From IMG/VR virus record IMGVR_UViG_3300033273_000548, positions 1-54,863 of that record: a stretch of 54,863 nucleotides of DNA; one strand, written 5' to 3'. The stretch is from a virus (Duplodnaviria > Caudoviricetes). Below are positions 5,048 through 28,252 of the stretch, one piece after another. The notes beneath the pieces were generated by a model. The model made no database searches. It was not told the DNA's origin and saw only the letters and a list, made by a program, of their open reading frames with translations. The number at the start of each line of letters is the position of its first letter. Within the stretch, counting starts at the first letter, position 1. The position numbers and the translations under genes were made by a program.

Positions 5048-7339
5048 TTACTCGTCATCTGGGTTTGAAACACAATCTACAATGTTTACAATAGTATTAA
5101 TTCCAACTCCACCAGTAGTTCCATTAATAAAGTTATCAACCAAGTCAGGATTATCTTCAATAAATTGAGGAACAAACTGAAGAACTGGATAAACAGCTGC
5201 TCCTTGACCTGTTCTTGTGTTTATACTGACAAGTGGAACTCTTCTGAACTTATCGGGACAATCTCCCATTTTTTCATATCCAATAATAGAACCATTCTTT
5301 GTAAGAATTGGTTTATACATGCAGTTACCAACTTGTATAGTATCTGAGTCTGTATATCCAATTCCAGGTCTTTCTATGACAAAATCGGTGTTAATTCCAA
5401 TAACATTATCAGACAATCGTCTATCACCAACGTCTAAACATGGTGCCTGAGTGGTTCCTATTCCAACTCCATCTTCTATTGGTCTACTGAAAGTTTCTTC
5501 AGTTAGATTAGTTTGGCAATATCCTCTACCAGGATTAATAATATAAATTCTATCTATTTTTCCATCCTTGTCAATTCTTGTTTTTGCCTGAGCACCTTTA
5601 CCATAGTTTGAATTATCTACTATTTGTATGTCTGGTGGAGCAGTATATCCACTTCCAGGATCACACAACAGGAAAGTAACAATACCTCCATCTATTTCGG
5701 AAACTACAGCTTTTGCTCTTGCACCTGTACCATCACCACCATAAATTCTAACTTCTGGTGGAATACATTTATTAAATCTAACTCCTGGAGGCATTGGATT
5801 TAAATCATCCTGATTCTGAGGATTTACAATTCTCTTTCTACAATCCGAAAATGGTGTATTATCATCACCAAATAGAGACAGGAATCCTACTGAGAAGTCT
5901 GGACTTCCCAATCCACTTAAAACATCCATATTACTTAGAATGTTATCCCATAAATCAGAACCTGGGAAACTTGCACCACTAAATGGATCCCAAGTAGTAA
6001 TTCCTCTACAAGCTAATCCATCGCATTGAAGGAAACTTAAGAGTTGACTAATTATGTTTAAGGAACCAGTTAATGCACCAGTAATAGAACTAATTCCATT
6101 TGCTAACCAGTCAAGTCCACTCATGACGGTAGCTAAAGCTCCGTCAATCATCTCTGCAAGTTTGTTTATTAATGAACTAGTAACTTCTTCGGCAGCACAC
6201 CTTGGTACGTTTGGACTTCTACCCAAAAGACCATTTAATAGTCCCTGCAAAAAGTCCAGTATTAACGGGAATAACTTCTCAAACAAACAGAAAATGATGT
6301 TTAAAATATTTTTTGCTGCTTCTGAAATAGGGAGTGCAATTGGTGATGGAGTAACTAGTCCAAGTAATTTAAATAATTTTCCTATTAACTTAAAAATGTT
6401 ATCACGCATCGCATTGATAACAAATTTAACAAGAGATGCGATGGATCTAGCCACACTGTTGACAGTGTTTCTAATGTCTACAACAGTATTTCTAATCGGA
6501 TCTATAAATCCTAAAGCAGTTTGTTCTAAACTATTAATCGTAGCAATAAAAGATTGCAATTTCTCAGTAATTTGAGCTAAAATATTATCCCCACACCCGT
6601 TATCTGTGGGTACTTGTCCAGCATCACCTTGTGCTTTGAGGAAGCCTAGTTCAGCTATATCATCACTGAATAGAGTGTCAGACGCTGAAAACGCTCCCTC
6701 ATAAGTAGAACCAGCTTGACTTAAGAATTCTGGACCTAATCCAGTGAATCCGGGTTCGAGATCTAATGATGCAGCTGTAGAAAAATCAACACCAGAAGAC
6801 ATTTGAAAAAAGTTCTCTGATCCTAATTTTTCATTTGTTTCCTTTGTTTGTCCTTCTTGTTGTTGTTTTATTCTTGTTGCAGCGTTTGGACGATTACCAC
6901 CACTTACTGCATATTCGCCTTTACTTCCAGTAAATGGTTGAAATGGTTGTGGGTTGTCAACATTTTCAACCATAGGGCTTCTATGGAAACAACTCATAAT
7001 AACTGGTTGTTGAGCTTCTTCCCCATCTAAGAAGAAACCTACAACAGATTCACCACCAACAAGTAAAGGTGTTTTTCCAAAACCTCCTTGTGCTGGTGAA
7101 CCGTCTGCAGCACTGGTTAATATATGAGCCCAAGGCAAATCATTATCAGCCAGTTCGTTTCTATCGAAACTATGATATCCGATAATTCTTACTTTACATC
7201 TATATCCCCAAGCTTCTTTGCCAGCGTCAATGTCTACTTTTGCATTGCGCCATACTTCTGGATCGGCAACTTGTCCGATCCACCAGACGAAACCGTCTCT
7301 GCCTAGGAAATTAGATTTTAAAAAAGATTCATCGATCAT
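5048..7339 (-). CDS. gp5: Baseplate hub subunit gp5 (N-terminal OB-fold)
   Basis: GRDGFVWWIGQV..RCKVRIIGYH..LPWA..GESVVGFFLDGEEAQQPVIM is the T4 gp5 N-terminal signature. Confidence 0.9.
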   Translation of the reverse strand: MIDESFLKSNFLGRDGFVWWIGQVADPEVWRNAKVDIDAGKEAWGYRCKVRIIGYHSFDRNELADNDLPWAHILTSAADGSPAQGGFGKTPLLVGGESVVGFFLDGEEAQQPVIMSCFHRSPMVENVDNPQPFQPFTGSKGEYAVSGGNRPNAATRIKQQQEGQTKETNEKLGSENFFQMSSGVDFSTAASLDLEPGFTGLGPEFLSQAGSTYEGAFSASDTLFSDDIAELGFLKAQGDAGQVPTDNGCGDNILAQITEKLQSFIATINSLEQTALGFIDPIRNTVVDIRNTVNSVARSIASLVKFVINAMRDNIFKLIGKLFKLLGLVTPSPIALPISEAAKNILNIIFCLFEKLFPLILDFLQGLLNGLLGRSPNVPRCAAEEVTSSLINKLAEMIDGALATVMSGLDWLANGISSITGALTGSLNIISQLLSFLQCDGLACRGITTWDPFSGASFPGSDLWDNILSNMDVLSGLGSPDFSVGFLSLFGDDNTPFSDCRKRIVNPQNQDDLNPMPPGVRFNKCIPPEVRIYGGDGTGARAKAVVSEIDGGIVTFLLCDPGSGYTAPPDIQIVDNSNYGKGAQAKTRIDKDGKIDRIYIINPGRGYCQTNLTEETFSRPIEDGVGIGTTQAPCLDVGDRRLSDNVIGINTDFVIERPGIGYTDSDTIQVGNCMYKPILTKNGSIIGYEKMGDCPDKFRRVPLVSINTRTGQGAAVYPVLQFVPQFIEDNPDLVDNFINGTTGGVGINTIVNIVDCVSNPDDE

Positions 7340-26736: not shown

Positions 26737-26766
26737 CAAAAAAAGAGAGGTTTTTTAACCTCTCCT
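26737..26766 (-). terminator. Intrinsic terminator of the riboswitch/DUF4278 operon
   Basis: GAGAGG-TTAAAAAA-CCTCTC then U-tract on the minus strand. Confidence 0.8.
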
Positions 26767-26925
26767 GTTATATATTGGTTCAATTTTTAGCAACTGTTCA
26801 AAGTATTCGTGCAAGTGTATCCGATAGCAGGACCAGTATGTTACCCCTCGATATTTGAGTAGATAACAACTGGGTGGTCTGCTGTCTTTGTCCATGTCAT
26901 CATAATGATAGACATAGTTCTCCAT
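26755..26925 (-). CDS. Small DUF4278-like protein (56 aa, LKYRGVTY motif)
   Basis: Read manually: MENYVYHYDDMDKDSRPPSCYLLKYRGVTYWSC... Confidence 0.6.
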   Translation of the reverse strand: MENYVYHYDDMDKDSRPPSCYLLKYRGVTYWSCYRIHLHEYFEQLLKIEPIYNRRG

Positions 26926-27021
26926 TTATCTTTTGGTTAATAGAAGGACTTCTCCATAAATTAGAACAATAAAGCTTACACAAAACAAAGTTCCTAATCC
27001 AGCGACTTGTAGTGCTTGCAT
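26926..27021 (-). CDS. 31-aa hydrophobic peptide (MQALQVAGLGTLFCVSFIVLIYGEVLLLTKR)
   Basis: Fills the gap between two DUF4278-like ORFs; single transmembrane-like segment. Confidence 0.5.
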   Translation of the reverse strand: MQALQVAGLGTLFCVSFIVLIYGEVLLLTKR

Positions 27022-27025
27022 AGTT

Positions 27026-27190
27026 CTATTTATTATAAGTGTGTCCTCTATAGCAGAAAGTACCATGTACTTCGTCAGTTCCTGGTTGACACTCATACTT
27101 GACGCCACGATAAGTGGTCATCATGATTTGAGCATCGTGAAGAGCTGCTGCTTTCTTGATCTGATTACGAATGAGATTGAGTGTGTTCAT
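27026..27190 (-). CDS. DUF4278-like protein (54 aa; TYRGVKY and CYRGHTY motifs)
   Basis: Read manually: MNTLNLIRNQIKKAAALHDAQIMMTTYRGVKYE...; directly downstream of riboswitch-like element. Confidence 0.75.
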   Translation of the reverse strand: MNTLNLIRNQIKKAAALHDAQIMMTTYRGVKYECQPGTDEVHGTFCYRGHTYNK

Positions 27191-27199
27191 TTGTCGTTA

Positions 27200-27408
27200 C
27201 CTGAAAAAATGGGTGAGTTTTAAGTCTCCCGTTCCTTCAGTCGTTTGCGTCCCAATGACACTCAGGCACAGATTCCTTTACGGTTTCTACAAGTTCTACC
27301 TTCACCAAAGGAGGTAGATCTTGATGCTTAGAGATTCTCAACATAAGAGTCTCAGCATCCTGGCATGTCATTGTTGAATACAAAAGTAATTCAAACATGG
27401 GATGAACG
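27200..27408 (-). ncRNA. Glutamine-II (Downstream-peptide)-like riboswitch, unit 2, with ORF-sized P2 loop
   Basis: CGTTCA-TCCCA[...]TGGGA-CGCA-AACGACTGAA-GGAACG-GG; P1 CGTTC/GAACG; possible CTGAA/TTCAG pseudoknot next to the DUF4278 ribosome-binding site. Confidence 0.65.
27237..27398 (-). CDS. 53-aa protein embedded in riboswitch unit 2 (MFELLLYSTMTCQDAE...ECHWDAND)
   Basis: Uninterrupted ORF read manually; ATG in the P2 5' arm, stop in the aptamer 3' junction. Confidence 0.65.
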   Translation of the reverse strand: MFELLLYSTMTCQDAETLMLRISKHQDLPPLVKVELVETVKESVPECHWDAND

Positions 27409-27411
27409 CTC

Positions 27412-27644
27412 CGTTCCGCGACTTACTTGCGTCTCACACTAACATATCGTTACATTGACCTTCTACTTTCGATCTAAGATAACCTAGAAGATTATATTTA
27501 GATCGTCTGTCCAGATTGTCATCCATAAGGATTTCAATCTTCTGTTGTAAGAACCTTTCACACGACATGTGCCACCCATAAGGTGAGTCGTCGGCATGAT
27601 GGGCAAGGGTCAATGCCAGTAAGATACTGAGCATGAGATGAACG
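27412..27644 (-). ncRNA. Glutamine-II-like riboswitch, unit 1, with ORF-sized P2 loop
   Basis: CGTTCA-TCTCA[...]TGAGA-CGCA-AGTAAGTCGC-GGAACG; begins right after the predicted transcription start. Confidence 0.6.
27434..27634 (-). CDS. 66-aa protein with signal-peptide-like N-terminus, embedded in riboswitch unit 1
   Basis: MLSILLALTLAHHADD...; ATG in the P2 5' arm and TGA in the P2 3' arm. Confidence 0.65.
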   Translation of the reverse strand: MLSILLALTLAHHADDSPYGWHMSCERFLQQKIEILMDDNLDRRSKYNLLGYLRSKVEGQCNDMLV

Positions 27645-27652
27645 ATGTGGTC

Positions 27653-27681
27653 ATTATAGACCGTTCAAGCTATATAGTCAA
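27653..27681 (-). promoter_or_regulatory. Sigma70-like promoter driving the riboswitch operon
   Basis: TTGACT-17 nt-TATAAT; predicted start near 27646, at ATCGTTC. Confidence 0.75.
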
Positions 27682-27689
27682 GCAGTTTG

Positions 27690-27703
27690 GTAAAATGCGA
27701 TAC
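27690..27703. promoter_or_regulatory. Putative NtcA-binding site
   Basis: GTA-TCGCATTT-TAC (GTA-N8-TAC), 8 nt upstream of the -35 element. Confidence 0.45.
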
Positions 27704-27707
27704 AATT

Positions 27708-27923
27708 TTAAGAATTGTCAAGATTGTACTGCATTATCATAGCAAAAACTTTTGACTTTAAGATTTTAAGATACTCTTGTTCTTCTGCAGGTCTCCTAGG
27801 AGAACCAGGCCAGGCTTCGATTGAATAACAAATATGGTCATAGAAAACTCTAAGTTCGTCTATTCCCATATTCATTTGGCAATACCAATCGCCTTCAAAT
27901 AGTTCAAAAGCATCTTCGTCCAT
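27708..27923 (-). CDS. Hypothetical protein
   Basis: 71-aa ORF downstream of petE (WPGSPRRPAEEQEYL). Confidence 0.65.
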   Translation of the reverse strand: MDEDAFELFEGDWYCQMNMGIDELRVFYDHICYSIEAWPGSPRRPAEEQEYLKILKSKVFAMIMQYNLDNS

Positions 27924-27928
27924 ATAGT

Positions 27929-28252
27929 TTAATTAACGTGTACTGTACCGATCATACCAGCGCCTTTATGTGGAGCACACCAGTATGTGTAGTCACCTGT
28001 TTCAGTAAAGGTGACATCGAACTCTTCACCAGGAAGCAGTGCAAGTGCCTCATGATCAAGTTCGGGATGATCTTCCACGATTACATTGTGTGGTGGAAGC
28101 ATATTGTTGACAAAGTGAACAGATTCTCCTGTAGCAATAGTAACCTCTGCTGGATCAAAAACAAGGTTGCCATCGGCACCCATCATGACATCTACAGCCC
28201 AAGCAGGTGCAGCAAGAAAAAGTGTAGATAGTAGTGCAAAAAGAAATTTCAT
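27929..28252 (-). CDS. petE: Plastocyanin
   Basis: Signal peptide (AWA|V), PHNV, and YWCAPHKGAGM copper ligands. Confidence 0.96.
   Translation of the reverse strand: MKFLFALLSTLFLAAPAWAVDVMMGADGNLVFDPAEVTIATGESVHFVNNMLPPHNVIVEDHPELDHEALALLPGEEFDVTFTETGDYTYWCAPHKGAGMIGTVHVN

Follow-up and report, generated by a model that had tools for sequence, protein, structure and literature searches.

In a window of 54,863 nucleotides, by which we mean the whole stretch of DNA analyzed, we found a region that probably encodes two tandem, long-range glutamine-type aptamers, each folded around a translated small gene. For both units, sequence comparison supports a first hairpin that is closed by a short stem and whose "loop" is a complete small-protein gene. 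We infer that these RNAs bind glutamine, and also the direction in which they regulate. The best explanation for the source of the window is a T4-like marine cyanophage, and for the region an early-promoter operon. The arrangement is common to hundreds of related phages. The features of the region are as follows.

27681-27653, minus strand: sigma-70-type promoter, TTGACT-17-TATAAT, with 11/12 consensus matches
27644-27639, minus strand: unit 1 pseudoknot 5' strand, CGUUCA (C1-A6 in Glutamine-II numbering)
27638-27630, minus strand: unit 1 hairpin 5' arm, TCTCATGCT (RNA UCUCAUGCU), holding the ORF1 ATG at 27634-27632
27634-27434, minus strand: ORF1, 66 aa, phrog_6471 (E 2.9e-37)
27440-27432, minus strand: unit 1 hairpin 3' arm, AGTGTGAGA (RNA AGUGUGAGA), with the ORF1 stop TGA/UGA (27436-27434) inside it
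27431-27428, minus strand: unit 1 CGCA, in which the linking strand CGC (27431-27429) is C17 G18 C19
27431-27411, minus strand: unit 1 core, consisting of CGC, linker AAGUAAGU, 3-bp stem CGC/GCG and GGAACGG, mapped to the numbering of Huang 2019
27417-27411, minus strand: unit 1 pseudoknot 3' strand, GGAACGG
27410-27403, minus strand: junction AG and unit 2 CGUUCA (27408-27403)
27402-27398, minus strand: unit 2 hairpin 5' arm, UCCCA (TCCCA), overlapping the ORF2 AUG at 27398-27396
27398-27237, minus strand: ORF2, 53 aa, phrog_504 (E 2.8e-26), with two conserved Cys
27254-27250, minus strand: unit 2 hairpin 3' arm, UGGGA (TGGGA)
27249-27246, minus strand: unit 2 CGCA, with CGC at 27249-27247, then the linker
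27240-27235, minus strand: unit 2 second-helix 5' strand, CUGAAG, holding the ORF2 stop UGA (27239-27237)
27235-27228, minus strand: unit 2 pseudoknot 3' strand, GGAACGGG, mapped to the crystal numbering
27230-27199, minus strand: ORF3 leader, with an inner and an outer helix and a Shine-Dalgarno-like AGGU at 27202-27199
27190-27026, minus strand: ORF3, 54 aa, a DUF4278-like (IF17-like) small protein, phrog_545 (E 7.4e-32)

Downstream of the promoter, the two units share one order of elements (CGUUCA, stem arm with AUG, ORF, stem arm, CGC and GGAACGG), and the DUF4278-like gene follows. The first-pass annotation had proposed this tandem layout, including the promoter and the downstream gene, and we confirmed it on the minus strand; the match of ORF3 to DUF4278 (24.7 bits, E 3.1e-5) is just under the cut-off of 25.3. 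Its finer claims were likewise confirmed: both ATGs overlap the hairpin 5' arms, the ORF1 stop codon takes up the opening three bases of the 3' arm's inner 5-nt part, and ORF2 reads through the 3' half of its aptamer, where core sequence encodes its tail, WDAND-stop. That annotation uses the type-1 name P2 for the hairpin, which is P1 in the nomenclature of the Glutamine-II crystal structure.

The -10 box of the promoter ends 8 nt before CGUUCA in the window, so transcription would be expected to begin 0-4 nt ahead of the aptamer. Among distinct upstream sequences, 39 of 48 for ORF-bearing units and 64 of 71 for units with a short hairpin have a -10 box, with no more than one mismatch, at a distance of 3-13 nt, mostly 7-9 nt.

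In each of the 12 GenBank phage loci that we fetched (from 413 matching records), and in 120 IMG/VR loci, both aptamer halves flank homologous ORFs. A 38-nt stretch (27396-27433), which spans the unit-1 core, the junction and the CGUUCA, arm and AUG of unit 2, is matched by 290 GenBank Synechococcus-phage records. The tandem junction also occurs in more than 120 IMG/VR contigs, but its invariance among these loci is by construction, because the 30-nt junction was the search pattern. An 18-nt junction pattern had 20 matches in genome contigs, where about 17 are expected by chance; the real element was present in 4, all of them MAG contigs, and the search gave no support for a host origin. Relatives of the region are present in contigs from 4 RNA-library runs. 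We do not take these as evidence of transcription, since contigs reveal neither strand nor start nor level, and DNA may be present in the runs.

We compared each unit with the solved Glutamine-II structure, in which the pseudoknot pairs are C1:G40, G2:C39, U3:A38, U4:A37 and C5:G36 (Huang 2019, PMC6698751). Both pseudoknot strands are present in both units (27644-27640 with 27416-27412, and 27408-27404 with 27234-27230), and their bases are invariant. In each unit the hairpin P1 begins directly after A6 and is followed by C17 G18 C19 and by G41, the partner of C19. The nucleotides that contact the ligand or form long-range pairs in the structure (C1, G2, G18, C19, C39, G40 and G41) are kept in both units. 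Unit 1 has an A at position 42, no counterpart of the crystal's A33:G42 pair, and a second helix of only 3 bp (CGC/GCG). In unit 2, the positions of A33:G42 are occupied by A (27237) and G (27228), and the outer helix covaries, although the predicted fold pairs A33 with a U. The position of the element ahead of a small DUF4278-type ORF also agrees with RF01704. The CGUUC and GGAACGG strands, the CGC and the stem arms are separated by about 160-215 nt, and the separated strands would have to meet by long-range pairing.

The first-pass annotation predicted that covariance models would probably miss such elements, and this prediction held for the window. Rfam gave nothing at gathering score, a search of 27000-27800 with E up to 10 returned only chance-level microRNA and sRNA rows, and neither RF01739 (Glutamine, gathering score 35 bits) nor RF01704 (Glutamine-II, 33 bits) matched anywhere in the whole 54,863-base record. 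That annotation also proposed scoring loop-less elements against these families, for which we used natural short forms; as with each of its refuting conditions checked here, the outcome favoured its reading. Rfam matches were found in 9 of the 11 short-form loci submitted (of 79), and S-SM1, one of the 12 GenBank loci, matches RF01739/RF01704. Single short forms scored 21-29 bits (21.4-28.7 for RF01704 and, without P3, 24.6-28.9 for RF01739), which is below the gathering scores, whereas L108, the lone tandem of two short units, reached 46.4 bits with RF01739. Thus, neither the window nor its short-hairpin relatives reached the 33 bits of RF01704, and a three-way junction with P3 scoring at least 35 bits for RF01739 was found in neither the window nor single short units. 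The presence of the same core in the short-hairpin relatives must be read knowing that the core was part of the search pattern. Our own model R1, built from 58 distinct short unit-1 forms, gave 48.4 bits to the 3' half of the window's unit 1, but the 5' side that it matched with this half was a spurious one close by; the real 5' half scored 6 bits by itself, and the ORF was not bridged.

The L108 alignment with RF01739 runs as a composite across both units, and it suggests a different reading, in which there is one aptamer. In this reading, pairing joins the outermost CGUUC (27644) to the final GGAACG (27235) in a type-1-like structure whose P2 is ORF1 and whose P3 is the remainder, ORF2 included. 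The alignment has exactly this form, and its 46.4 bits exceed both the gathering score and the 21-29 bits of single units; moreover, GAAGGAACG of unit 2 fits the type-1 consensus. One side of the proposed 3-bp P3 was part of the search pattern. A single aptamer seems improbable to us, because unit 1 retains a complete GGAACGG strand of its own, unit 2 retains its own CGUUCA and CGC strands, and the stem of unit 2 covaries.

Evidence that the distant arms of each unit do pair comes from covariation. The 9-bp unit-1 stem with two G-U pairs that had been suggested as possible is present; in the predicted fold of the 471-nt RNA, its pair probabilities are about 0.9-1.0, except for 0.50 at the closing U-A pair. 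The unit-2 stem, which is 5 bp in the window, has a pair probability of about 0.35. Minimum-energy folds contained the stem in 51/51 unit-1 homologues and 85/110 unit-2 homologues. In the unit-1 stem, 230 of 255 cells are paired, compared with 205 +/- 3.3 after shuffling, and in the unit-2 stem 531 of 550, compared with 500 +/- 2.3; in each case 0 of 2000 shuffles were as high, although these controls overstate significance because the sequences are related. A separate pair-counting tool found 88.7% of the ORF-closing stem paired, versus 26-64% with a slid partner. Position 3 of the unit-1 stem is U-A in 22 and C-G in 29 sequences, with zero mismatches, while position 4 has an A.A mismatch in 14/51. 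A tree of loop interiors requires a minimum of 8 and 9 changes of pair state. Compensatory changes, whose absence would have counted against the first-pass annotation, were therefore found in both units, in the form of U-A/C-G swaps.

It is important to consider whether only local halves matter, i.e., whether there is no long-range aptamer and the conserved sequence is a hairpin for coupling or processing that lies between small genes, or the relic of a riboswitch that was broken by gene insertion. A junction hairpin GAACG-GAG-CGUUC (27416-27404) can form, with a probability of about 0.34, and no covariance model bridges an ORF. We nevertheless regard this explanation as very improbable. The compensatory changes connect arms that are roughly 150-200 nt apart, and no upstream partner for such a hairpin is available to the 5'-most CGUUCA, yet this strand occurs as an exact CGTTCA, 4-10 nt ahead of the ORF ATG, in all 53 ORF-bearing unit-1 loci. 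In addition, both aptamer halves are intact even though neighbouring codons reach a median dS >1.

The enclosed ORFs appear to encode conserved proteins. Purifying selection, which had been named as a check, is evident in dN/dS values of 0.19 (ORF1) and 0.26 (ORF2). In the predicted structure of ORF1 (pLDDT 79.7), a hydrophobic helix at the N terminus accompanies a Cys25...Cys61 helical hairpin, and C25 and C61 are invariant in its alignment; a Foldseek search of the PDB with this model (E up to 0.001) gave no match. In ORF2, C12, W49, A51, N52 and D53 are invariant. A protein Atlas search returned only unnamed clusters for both proteins, which carry a viral label for ORF1 and no recorded taxa for ORF2. 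BLASTP found nothing between ORF1 and ORF2. Profile-to-profile comparison aligned their Cys-Cys spans (E 0.0012, probability 19%), which is suggestive at most.

We then consider how the loops vary among 133 related sources. In 79 of these, unit 1 has an ordinary hairpin of 12-47 nt, in 53 it has an ORF-bearing loop of 199-234 nt, and in 1 it is cut short by the contig end. Both units are complete in 128 sources, and in this set unit 2 is ORF-bearing in 127 and short in 1. S-SM1 is the sole short unit 1 among the 12 GenBank loci, and 78 further loci are short at the same site. On a local tree of 80 loci, unit 1 switched between the short and ORF-bearing states at least 13 times, and several unrelated-looking protein families occupy the loops. 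Both kinds of variant that the first-pass annotation had suggested looking for among homologous loci, loop-less and loop-swapped, thus exist.

This pattern is what would be expected of a cassette site, and it fits a view in which the genes are merely parked: the aptamers would switch only their downstream gene, while the ORFs sit in a tolerant loop behind a strong early promoter and are translated independently of glutamine. Consistent with such tolerance, the hairpin loop was found to be dispensable for binding (Huang 2019, PMC6698751). However, the ORFs come without their own spacer or Shine-Dalgarno sequence, and their boundaries are tied to the structure. In 167 of 167 ORF-bearing loops, the ATG is within the first 3-10 nt, in or just after the inner arm; it is at offset 4 in 148 of the 167, and in 109 of 114 loci for unit 2. 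Stops also lie at fixed structural positions: the unit-1 stop codon takes up bases 1-3 of the inner 5-nt arm in 37/53 loci, and the unit-2 stop is at the window's structural position in 108/114. Given these features, stem formation and initiation are not independent. Furthermore, no homologues of the loop proteins were found elsewhere in the 133 sources. We therefore consider glutamine-independent parking unlikely and prefer aptamers that are functionally connected to the genes they enclose.

Downstream of unit 2, the ORF3 leader offers a second set of conserved pairings. Its inner hairpin, GGG...CCC (27230-27211), is an alternative to the pseudoknot and has 88.7% of its cells paired. The outer helix is paired in 97.9% of cells; its 3' strand, the second-helix strand UUUCAG (27206-27201), overlaps the Shine-Dalgarno-like AGGU. 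The leader helices covary, and one outer pair is G-C in 55 sequences, G-U in 28, A-U in 23 and unpaired in 3. Two further candidates were rejected. An intrinsic terminator after unit 2 (GGGAG...CUCACCC and a U run) is found in the window only; it went uncalled in the terminator scan, and the U run is absent from relatives. Pairing of the ORF3 AUGAAC with GUUCAU, seen in the window's minimum-energy fold, is broken by ORF3 homologues with other second codons.

Because the preferred tandem aptamers fold around translated genes, access to start codons, termination and ligand sensing would be physically coupled. Each AUG lies in the 5' arm adjoining a pseudoknot strand, so that folding of the aptamer and occupancy of that AUG by a 30S subunit would be mutually exclusive. 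On structural grounds, glutamine would stabilize the fold and reduce initiation at ORF1 and ORF2. For ORF3, a glutamine-driven pseudoknot would compete with the two covarying helices, which tie up G40-G42 and the Shine-Dalgarno region; if the pseudoknot won this competition, ORF3 would be turned on, as reported for host type-2 switches. Since the ORF1 stop is in a stem arm and the ORF2 stop is in the helix that masks ORF3, each terminating ribosome would have to unfold an aptamer and briefly expose the next start.

A more elaborate scheme, which we put forward tentatively and consider possible rather than likely, joins these steps into a ribosome-gated, gene-enclosing riboswitch that has two mutually exclusive folds, both under selection, and that combines a reset, cooperativity and a cassette site. 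At high glutamine, a loop of about 150-200 nt would close around each ORF, its near-leaderless start would be hidden, and the ribosome site of the IF17-like ORF3 would be freed. At low glutamine, the secreted-looking Cys-pair peptides would be produced instead. Every terminating ribosome would reopen the aptamer and so reset it, the shared junction hairpin would couple the switching of both aptamers, and the hairpin would double as an exchange site for small genes among phages.

We found no earlier description of a glutamine-riboswitch hairpin that encloses a gene, although the supplements of earlier surveys might mention long insertions. A survey from the laboratory of the riboswitch discoverers gives only two glutamine aptamers in cyanophage genomes and describes riboswitch use by phages as rare (McCown 2017, PMC5473149). 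Most of the phage elements are invisible to covariance models, because a gene is inside the hairpin or the score is below threshold, and riboswitch use by phages may be underestimated. Annotation pipelines should permit very long insertions in riboswitch hairpins. If our reading is correct, an aptamer hairpin that hosts a whole translated gene would be a new design principle, in which ligand sensing and ribosome traffic are coupled by construction because start and stop codons are built into aptamer helices. It would also bear on how cyanophages read the nitrogen status of their hosts, and on possible phage control of an IF17-like glutamine synthetase inhibitor.

Among known systems, the closest is Glutamine-II (Downstream-peptide, type 2, RF01704), with which the phage units share CGUUCA, a hairpin, CGC, a linker, a second helix enclosing GGAACGG(G), a DUF4278-type ORF, every ligand-contacting nucleotide and a host group of marine picocyanobacteria. 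The type-2 motif is associated with a downstream small DUF4278-type ORF, and for both glutamine switch types expression rises after an ammonium upshift (Klahn 2018, PMC6212724). Unlike Glutamine-II, whose first hairpin usually spans about a dozen bases and has a short loop, the phage units have a coding first-hairpin loop (189 nt in unit 1 and 143 nt in unit 2), a start codon in the 5' arm, and a stop in either the 3' arm or the second helix. Within the second-helix loop of unit 2 there is an additional hairpin, unit 1 lacks A33:G42, and scores are under the Rfam gathering score. In vitro, the hairpin loop of Glutamine-II could be replaced with binding kept, and a two-piece aptamer was functional (Huang 2019, PMC6698751). 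The phage units resemble this two-piece aptamer in that it assembles from strands that no short loop joins; it differs in that the engineered split is elsewhere, passes through the pseudoknot and is non-coding. Tandem copies are a known feature of type 1 (Weinberg 2010, PMC2864571). The phage region shares with type 1 (glnA RNA, RF01739) this tandem arrangement, the score of L108 above gathering, and ACGCAAGUA of unit 1, which is one base off the consensus ACGGAAGUA. Unlike type 1, neither phage unit alone has a P3 hairpin, the window has no match, and both units enclose ORFs.

More distant parallels come from structured RNAs that contain genes. Group I introns can carry ORFs in their peripheral loops, and the Mg2+ leader of Salmonella mgtA contains the leader ORF mgtL; in both systems, a structured RNA tolerates or uses an internal translated ORF, and ribosome transit alters the fold. 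Group I introns, however, are ribozymes rather than ligand sensors, and mgtL encodes a short regulatory leader peptide, whereas the ORFs described here encode conserved proteins of 50-75 aa inside an aptamer hairpin.

The window, a 54,863-base IMG/VR virus record, represents part of a T4-like cyanophage genome (estimated completeness 28%), and the locus under study is laid out in it as follows.

Features of the locus in the window
27929-28252: plastocyanin-like ORF, a homologue of the phage S-SCSM2R gene that is annotated as PetE
27708-27923, minus strand: 71-aa ORF (phrog_628) between the plastocyanin gene and the promoter, ending 27 nt before the -35 box
27681-27653, minus strand: promoter, TTGACT-17-TATAAT
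27644-27639, minus strand: CGUUCA of unit 1, the first riboswitch-like element
Directly after this CGUUCA, minus strand: unit 1 5' arm UCUCAUGCU, with the ORF1 AUG at 27634
From 27634, minus strand: ORF1, 66 codons, inside the unit-1 hairpin
Minus strand: unit 1 3' arm AGUGUGAGA, containing a UGA
Minus strand: unit 1 3' core, CGCAAGUAAGUCGC, then GGAACGG, then AG
27408-27403, minus strand: CGUUCA of unit 2, the second such element
Minus strand: unit 2 5' arm UCCCA, with the ORF2 AUG at 27398
From 27398, minus strand: ORF2, 53 codons, in which UGGGA-CGCAAACGAC is read as W-D-A-N-D and the stop is the UGA of CUGAAG
After the end of ORF2, minus strand: GGAACGGG of unit 2
27190-27026, minus strand: ORF3, preceded by a 37-nt leader, with a phrog_545 match
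26926-27018, minus strand: 30-aa hydrophobic ORF downstream of ORF3
26755-26925, minus strand: 56-aa ORF whose YRGVTY motif recalls DUF4278
26766-26743, minus strand: terminator-like hairpin with a T run

The first-pass annotation had described a promoter, two ORF-enclosing units and a DUF4278-like gene on the minus strand, and this layout holds, with ORF3 scoring 24.7 bits against DUF4278, under the cut-off of 25.3. It was also correct that the UGA of the unit-1 3' arm is the ORF1 stop codon, and that ORF2 runs through the 3' half of aptamer 2 as W-D-A-N-D-stop. No match was found in a Pfam search of the 56-aa ORF, and the terminator-like hairpin is probably the end of the operon.

A blastn search with the locus matched 413 Synechococcus, Prochlorococcus and cyanophage records, and homology to other phages starts exactly at the first CGUUCA (query 307, window 27644). 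From these GenBank records we took 12, chosen for diversity among the best 40. The IMG/VR set comprises 120 loci, out of at least that many matching an exact 30-nt pattern of the junction between the two units, so in these loci the junction is invariant by construction and the sample is non-random. We compared 133 sources, i.e., the window, 12 GenBank records and 120 IMG/VR loci; one-base departures from the first search pattern occur in 13 unit-2 3' halves. Unit 1 is short in 79 of the 133 sources (12-47 nt between CGUUCA and CGC, with 25 arm combinations), carries a 199-234-nt loop in 53, and is cut by the contig end in one. Counting unit 1 and then unit 2, 75 sources are short/long, 51 long/long (including the window), one short/short (locus L108) and six truncated. 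The loop-less variants that the first-pass annotation had proposed to look for therefore exist for unit 1 in these 79 sources and for unit 2 in L108, and at the unit-1 site nature uses the aptamer scaffold both with and without a gene.

The 38-nt stretch 27396-27433, from the unit-1 core across the junction to the ORF2 AUG, is matched at ≥95% identity by 290 GenBank phage records. The only annotation they give it is "hypothetical protein", and at least one record gives none. In Synechococcus phage Sf-CH5, the otherwise invariant junction is interrupted (976-1568): a gene annotated as a homing endonuclease (994-1566) lies between the unit-1 3' half and the unit-2 CGUUCA. HNH endonuclease genes also occur just upstream of unit 1 in S-TIM5 (166-660 of the fetched locus) and Sf-FS3 (295-702). 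Homing may be directed at the invariant junction. Searching genome contigs with an 18-nt junction pattern gave 20 matches, of which 16 are due to chance. The true phage tandem element is carried by the other four (L136, L143, L147 and L150), all of them MAG contigs; one, 194 kb long, bears the label Synechococcus sp., and two belong to a MAG with the label Euryarchaeota. Binning of cyanophage contigs into MAGs is the probable explanation.

To relate the units to known aptamers, we mapped window positions onto the crystal numbering of Glutamine-II (Huang 2019, PMC6698751). Both units retain C1 G2 U3 U4 C5 A6, the linking strand C17 G18 C19, and G35-G41, which cover all glutamine contacts reported in the available text of that paper (C1, G18, C39, G40) and the long-range C19:G41 pair. 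A33 and G42 are present in unit 2, and position 42 is A in unit 1. According to the same text, Glutamine-II keeps its function when its first hairpin is swapped for a UUCG mini-hairpin and when the aptamer is split into two RNAs, so a long insertion in this hairpin is structurally plausible.

It had been suggested that loop-free forms be scored against Rfam, and natural short forms served for this. Among 11 of the 79 short-form loci, nine match one or both glutamine families at unit 1 (21.4-28.9 bits), and L014 and L026 match neither. The short unit 1 of S-SM1, the sole match among the 12 GenBank loci, scores 28.9 bits with Glutamine (gathering score 35) and 25.5 bits with Glutamine-II (gathering score 33); every single unit falls under the gathering scores. 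The tandem of L108 (3981-4070 in unit orientation, 6358-6447 as stored), the only locus with both hairpins short, reaches 46.4 bits (E 5.5e-7) with the type-1 model, in an alignment that spans the unit-1 5' part to the unit-2 3' part as one composite aptamer. As this alignment hints, the tandem may be able to adopt one nested switch fold as well.

The stem closing around each ORF was evaluated by anchoring its arms on the invariant flanks. Over five positions in 51 distinct ORF-bearing versions of unit 1, pairing is seen in 230 of 255 cells, versus 205 ± 3.3 when arms are exchanged among loci; in unit 2, the figures are 531 of 550 (110 distinct units) versus 500 ± 2.3. None of 2000 shuffles was as high in either unit. 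Unit-1 position 3 is U-A in 22 cases and C-G in 29, with no mismatch, and position 4 is U-A 18, C-G 13, A-U 2, G-C 1, U-G 1 and mismatched 16 times (14 being A.A). In unit 2, positions 1 and 3 swap between U-A and C-G, and position 4 shows C-G, U-A, U-G and A-U. An independent pair-counting tool, applied to the 51 unit-1 sequences after alignment with MAFFT, gave 88.7% paired, and 26-64% when the partner was slid by 1-3 columns. By this tool, double-change cells number 35, versus 13.8 ± 4 in shuffles. These compensatory changes across the ORF in both units bear out the covariation that the first-pass annotation had looked to. On quick trees of the loop interiors, with arms excluded, Watson-Crick type changed at least 8 times at unit-1 position 3 and at least 9 times at position 4, so the covariation does not reflect one inherited event; recombination could contribute to these repeated changes. 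Thermodynamic folds contain at least three of the five stem pairs in 51/51 unit-1 and 85/110 unit-2 homologues. In the predicted fold of the window, a 9-bp unit-1 stem (pair probability ~0.9-1.0, closing pair 0.50) buries AUG1, and the 5-bp unit-2 stem has a pair probability of ~0.35.

The loops themselves behave as protein genes. An ATG occurs in the first 3-10 nt of each of the 167 long loops (at offset 4 in 39/53 unit-1 and 109/114 unit-2 loops), after which an open frame fills the loop; in L041 the unit-1 frame appears broken, or the start codon wrongly chosen. In 37/53 unit-1 loci the inner 5-nt arm opens with the stop codon, and the choice among TGA, TAA and TAG accordingly covaries with the bases that precede the ATG. 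The unit-2 stop, in 108/114 loci, is a UGA or UAA within ACU(G/A)AAGG. Purifying selection on the embedded ORFs, on which the claim of genes within riboswitches depended, is evident in the three largest loop-protein groups (median dN/dS 0.26, 0.19 and 0.24), where most variation is at third codon positions. The loop proteins form about a dozen groups, all with a hydrophobic N-terminus and two Cys ~35 residues apart, and their homologues are confined to the two unit positions across all 133 sources. ORF1 is assigned to phrog_6471 and ORF2 to phrog_504. AlphaFold models ORF1 (pLDDT 79.7) as an N-terminal helix plus a helical hairpin predicted with confidence, and no match to this model was found in the PDB.

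Unit-2 ORFs of unrelated-looking protein groups all end in ...DAND in 108/114 loci (window 27237-27254). These endings are the aptamer core CGCAAACGACUGA read in one common frame, so the stretch doubles as protein code and RNA structure.

We assessed the helices of the ORF3 leader across 109 distinct sequences. In an outer helix (97.9% of cells paired), CUGAAG, which contains the ORF2 stop and abuts GGAACG, pairs with CUUCAG, which overlaps the start of the AGGAG ribosome site. One of its pairs is G-C in 55, G-U in 28, A-U in 23 and unpaired in 3 sequences; a separate count gave G-C 51, G-U 30, A-U 25 and A.C 0. In an inner helix (88.7% paired), G40-G42 pair with a downstream CCC or UCC, and G-C, G-U and A-U all occur at one position. 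The inner helix is incompatible with the pseudoknot and the C19:G41 pair yet is conserved, so a fold excluding the ligand-bound state is itself conserved. Such a competing helix is as would be expected of an expression platform. At the junction, GAACG-GAG-CGUUC (27404-27416) can form a local 5-bp hairpin (pair probability ~0.34, in a sequence fixed by the search pattern), which would occupy the unit-1 pseudoknot 3' strand and the unit-2 5' strand together.

The ORF3 start AUGAAC (27185-27190) is complementary to GUUCAU of the aptamer 5' strand (27638-27643), and the two are paired in the minimum-energy fold of the window. Most ORF3 homologues start with AUGAAC; the complementarity is lost where the second codon differs.

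Comparison among loci shows that selection acts on the parts of the aptamer and on the stems closing each ORF, and that it likewise maintains the leader helices and the coding capacity of the loops. Both glutamine riboswitch types reportedly raise expression after ammonium upshift in reporter strains (Klahn 2018, PMC6212724), and it was proposed that pseudoknot formation competes with a structure occluding the ribosome site (Huang 2019, PMC6698751). In the window the -10 box ends 8 nt before CGUUCA, which would place AUG1 only ~10-14 nt from the RNA 5' end; this spacing is conserved (≤1 mismatch to TATAAT) in 39/48 long-form and 64/71 short-form distinct upstream sequences. AUG1 has no Shine-Dalgarno sequence. 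Ribosomes might load before the 3' half is transcribed; once it is present, the stem and a glutamine-stabilised pseudoknot would hide AUG1 and AUG2. For ORF3, glutamine would recruit G40-G42 to the pseudoknot, together with the outer-helix A-A-G, and so free the ribosome site. Ribosomes terminating at the two stop codons would have to melt the unit-1 stem and the unit-2 masking helix, which would reset the switch and couple ORF2 to ORF3. The junction hairpin, by holding one strand of each pseudoknot, could make both aptamers switch together. Of these inferred steps, the weakest is the one that says which way ORF1 and ORF2 are controlled.

The original observation is thus confirmed, and its structural interpretation, i.e., long-range aptamers around ORFs, is supported. 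A literature search for ORFs located within riboswitches or aptamers found nothing, and the available main-text passages on cyanophage, glnA, Downstream-peptide and Glutamine-II riboswitches gave no description of a gene inside a glutamine-riboswitch hairpin. Known already are tandem glnA RNAs (Weinberg 2010, PMC2864571) and a glutamine riboswitch in T4-like cyanophages (PMC9964418, PMC9602691), and the available text of McCown 2017 (PMC5473149) reports only two glutamine aptamers in cyanophage genomes. Set beside these, the locus is, on comparative grounds, a new and widespread form of glutamine riboswitch whose aptamer hairpin closes around a translated gene, with glutamine binding and regulation predicted.
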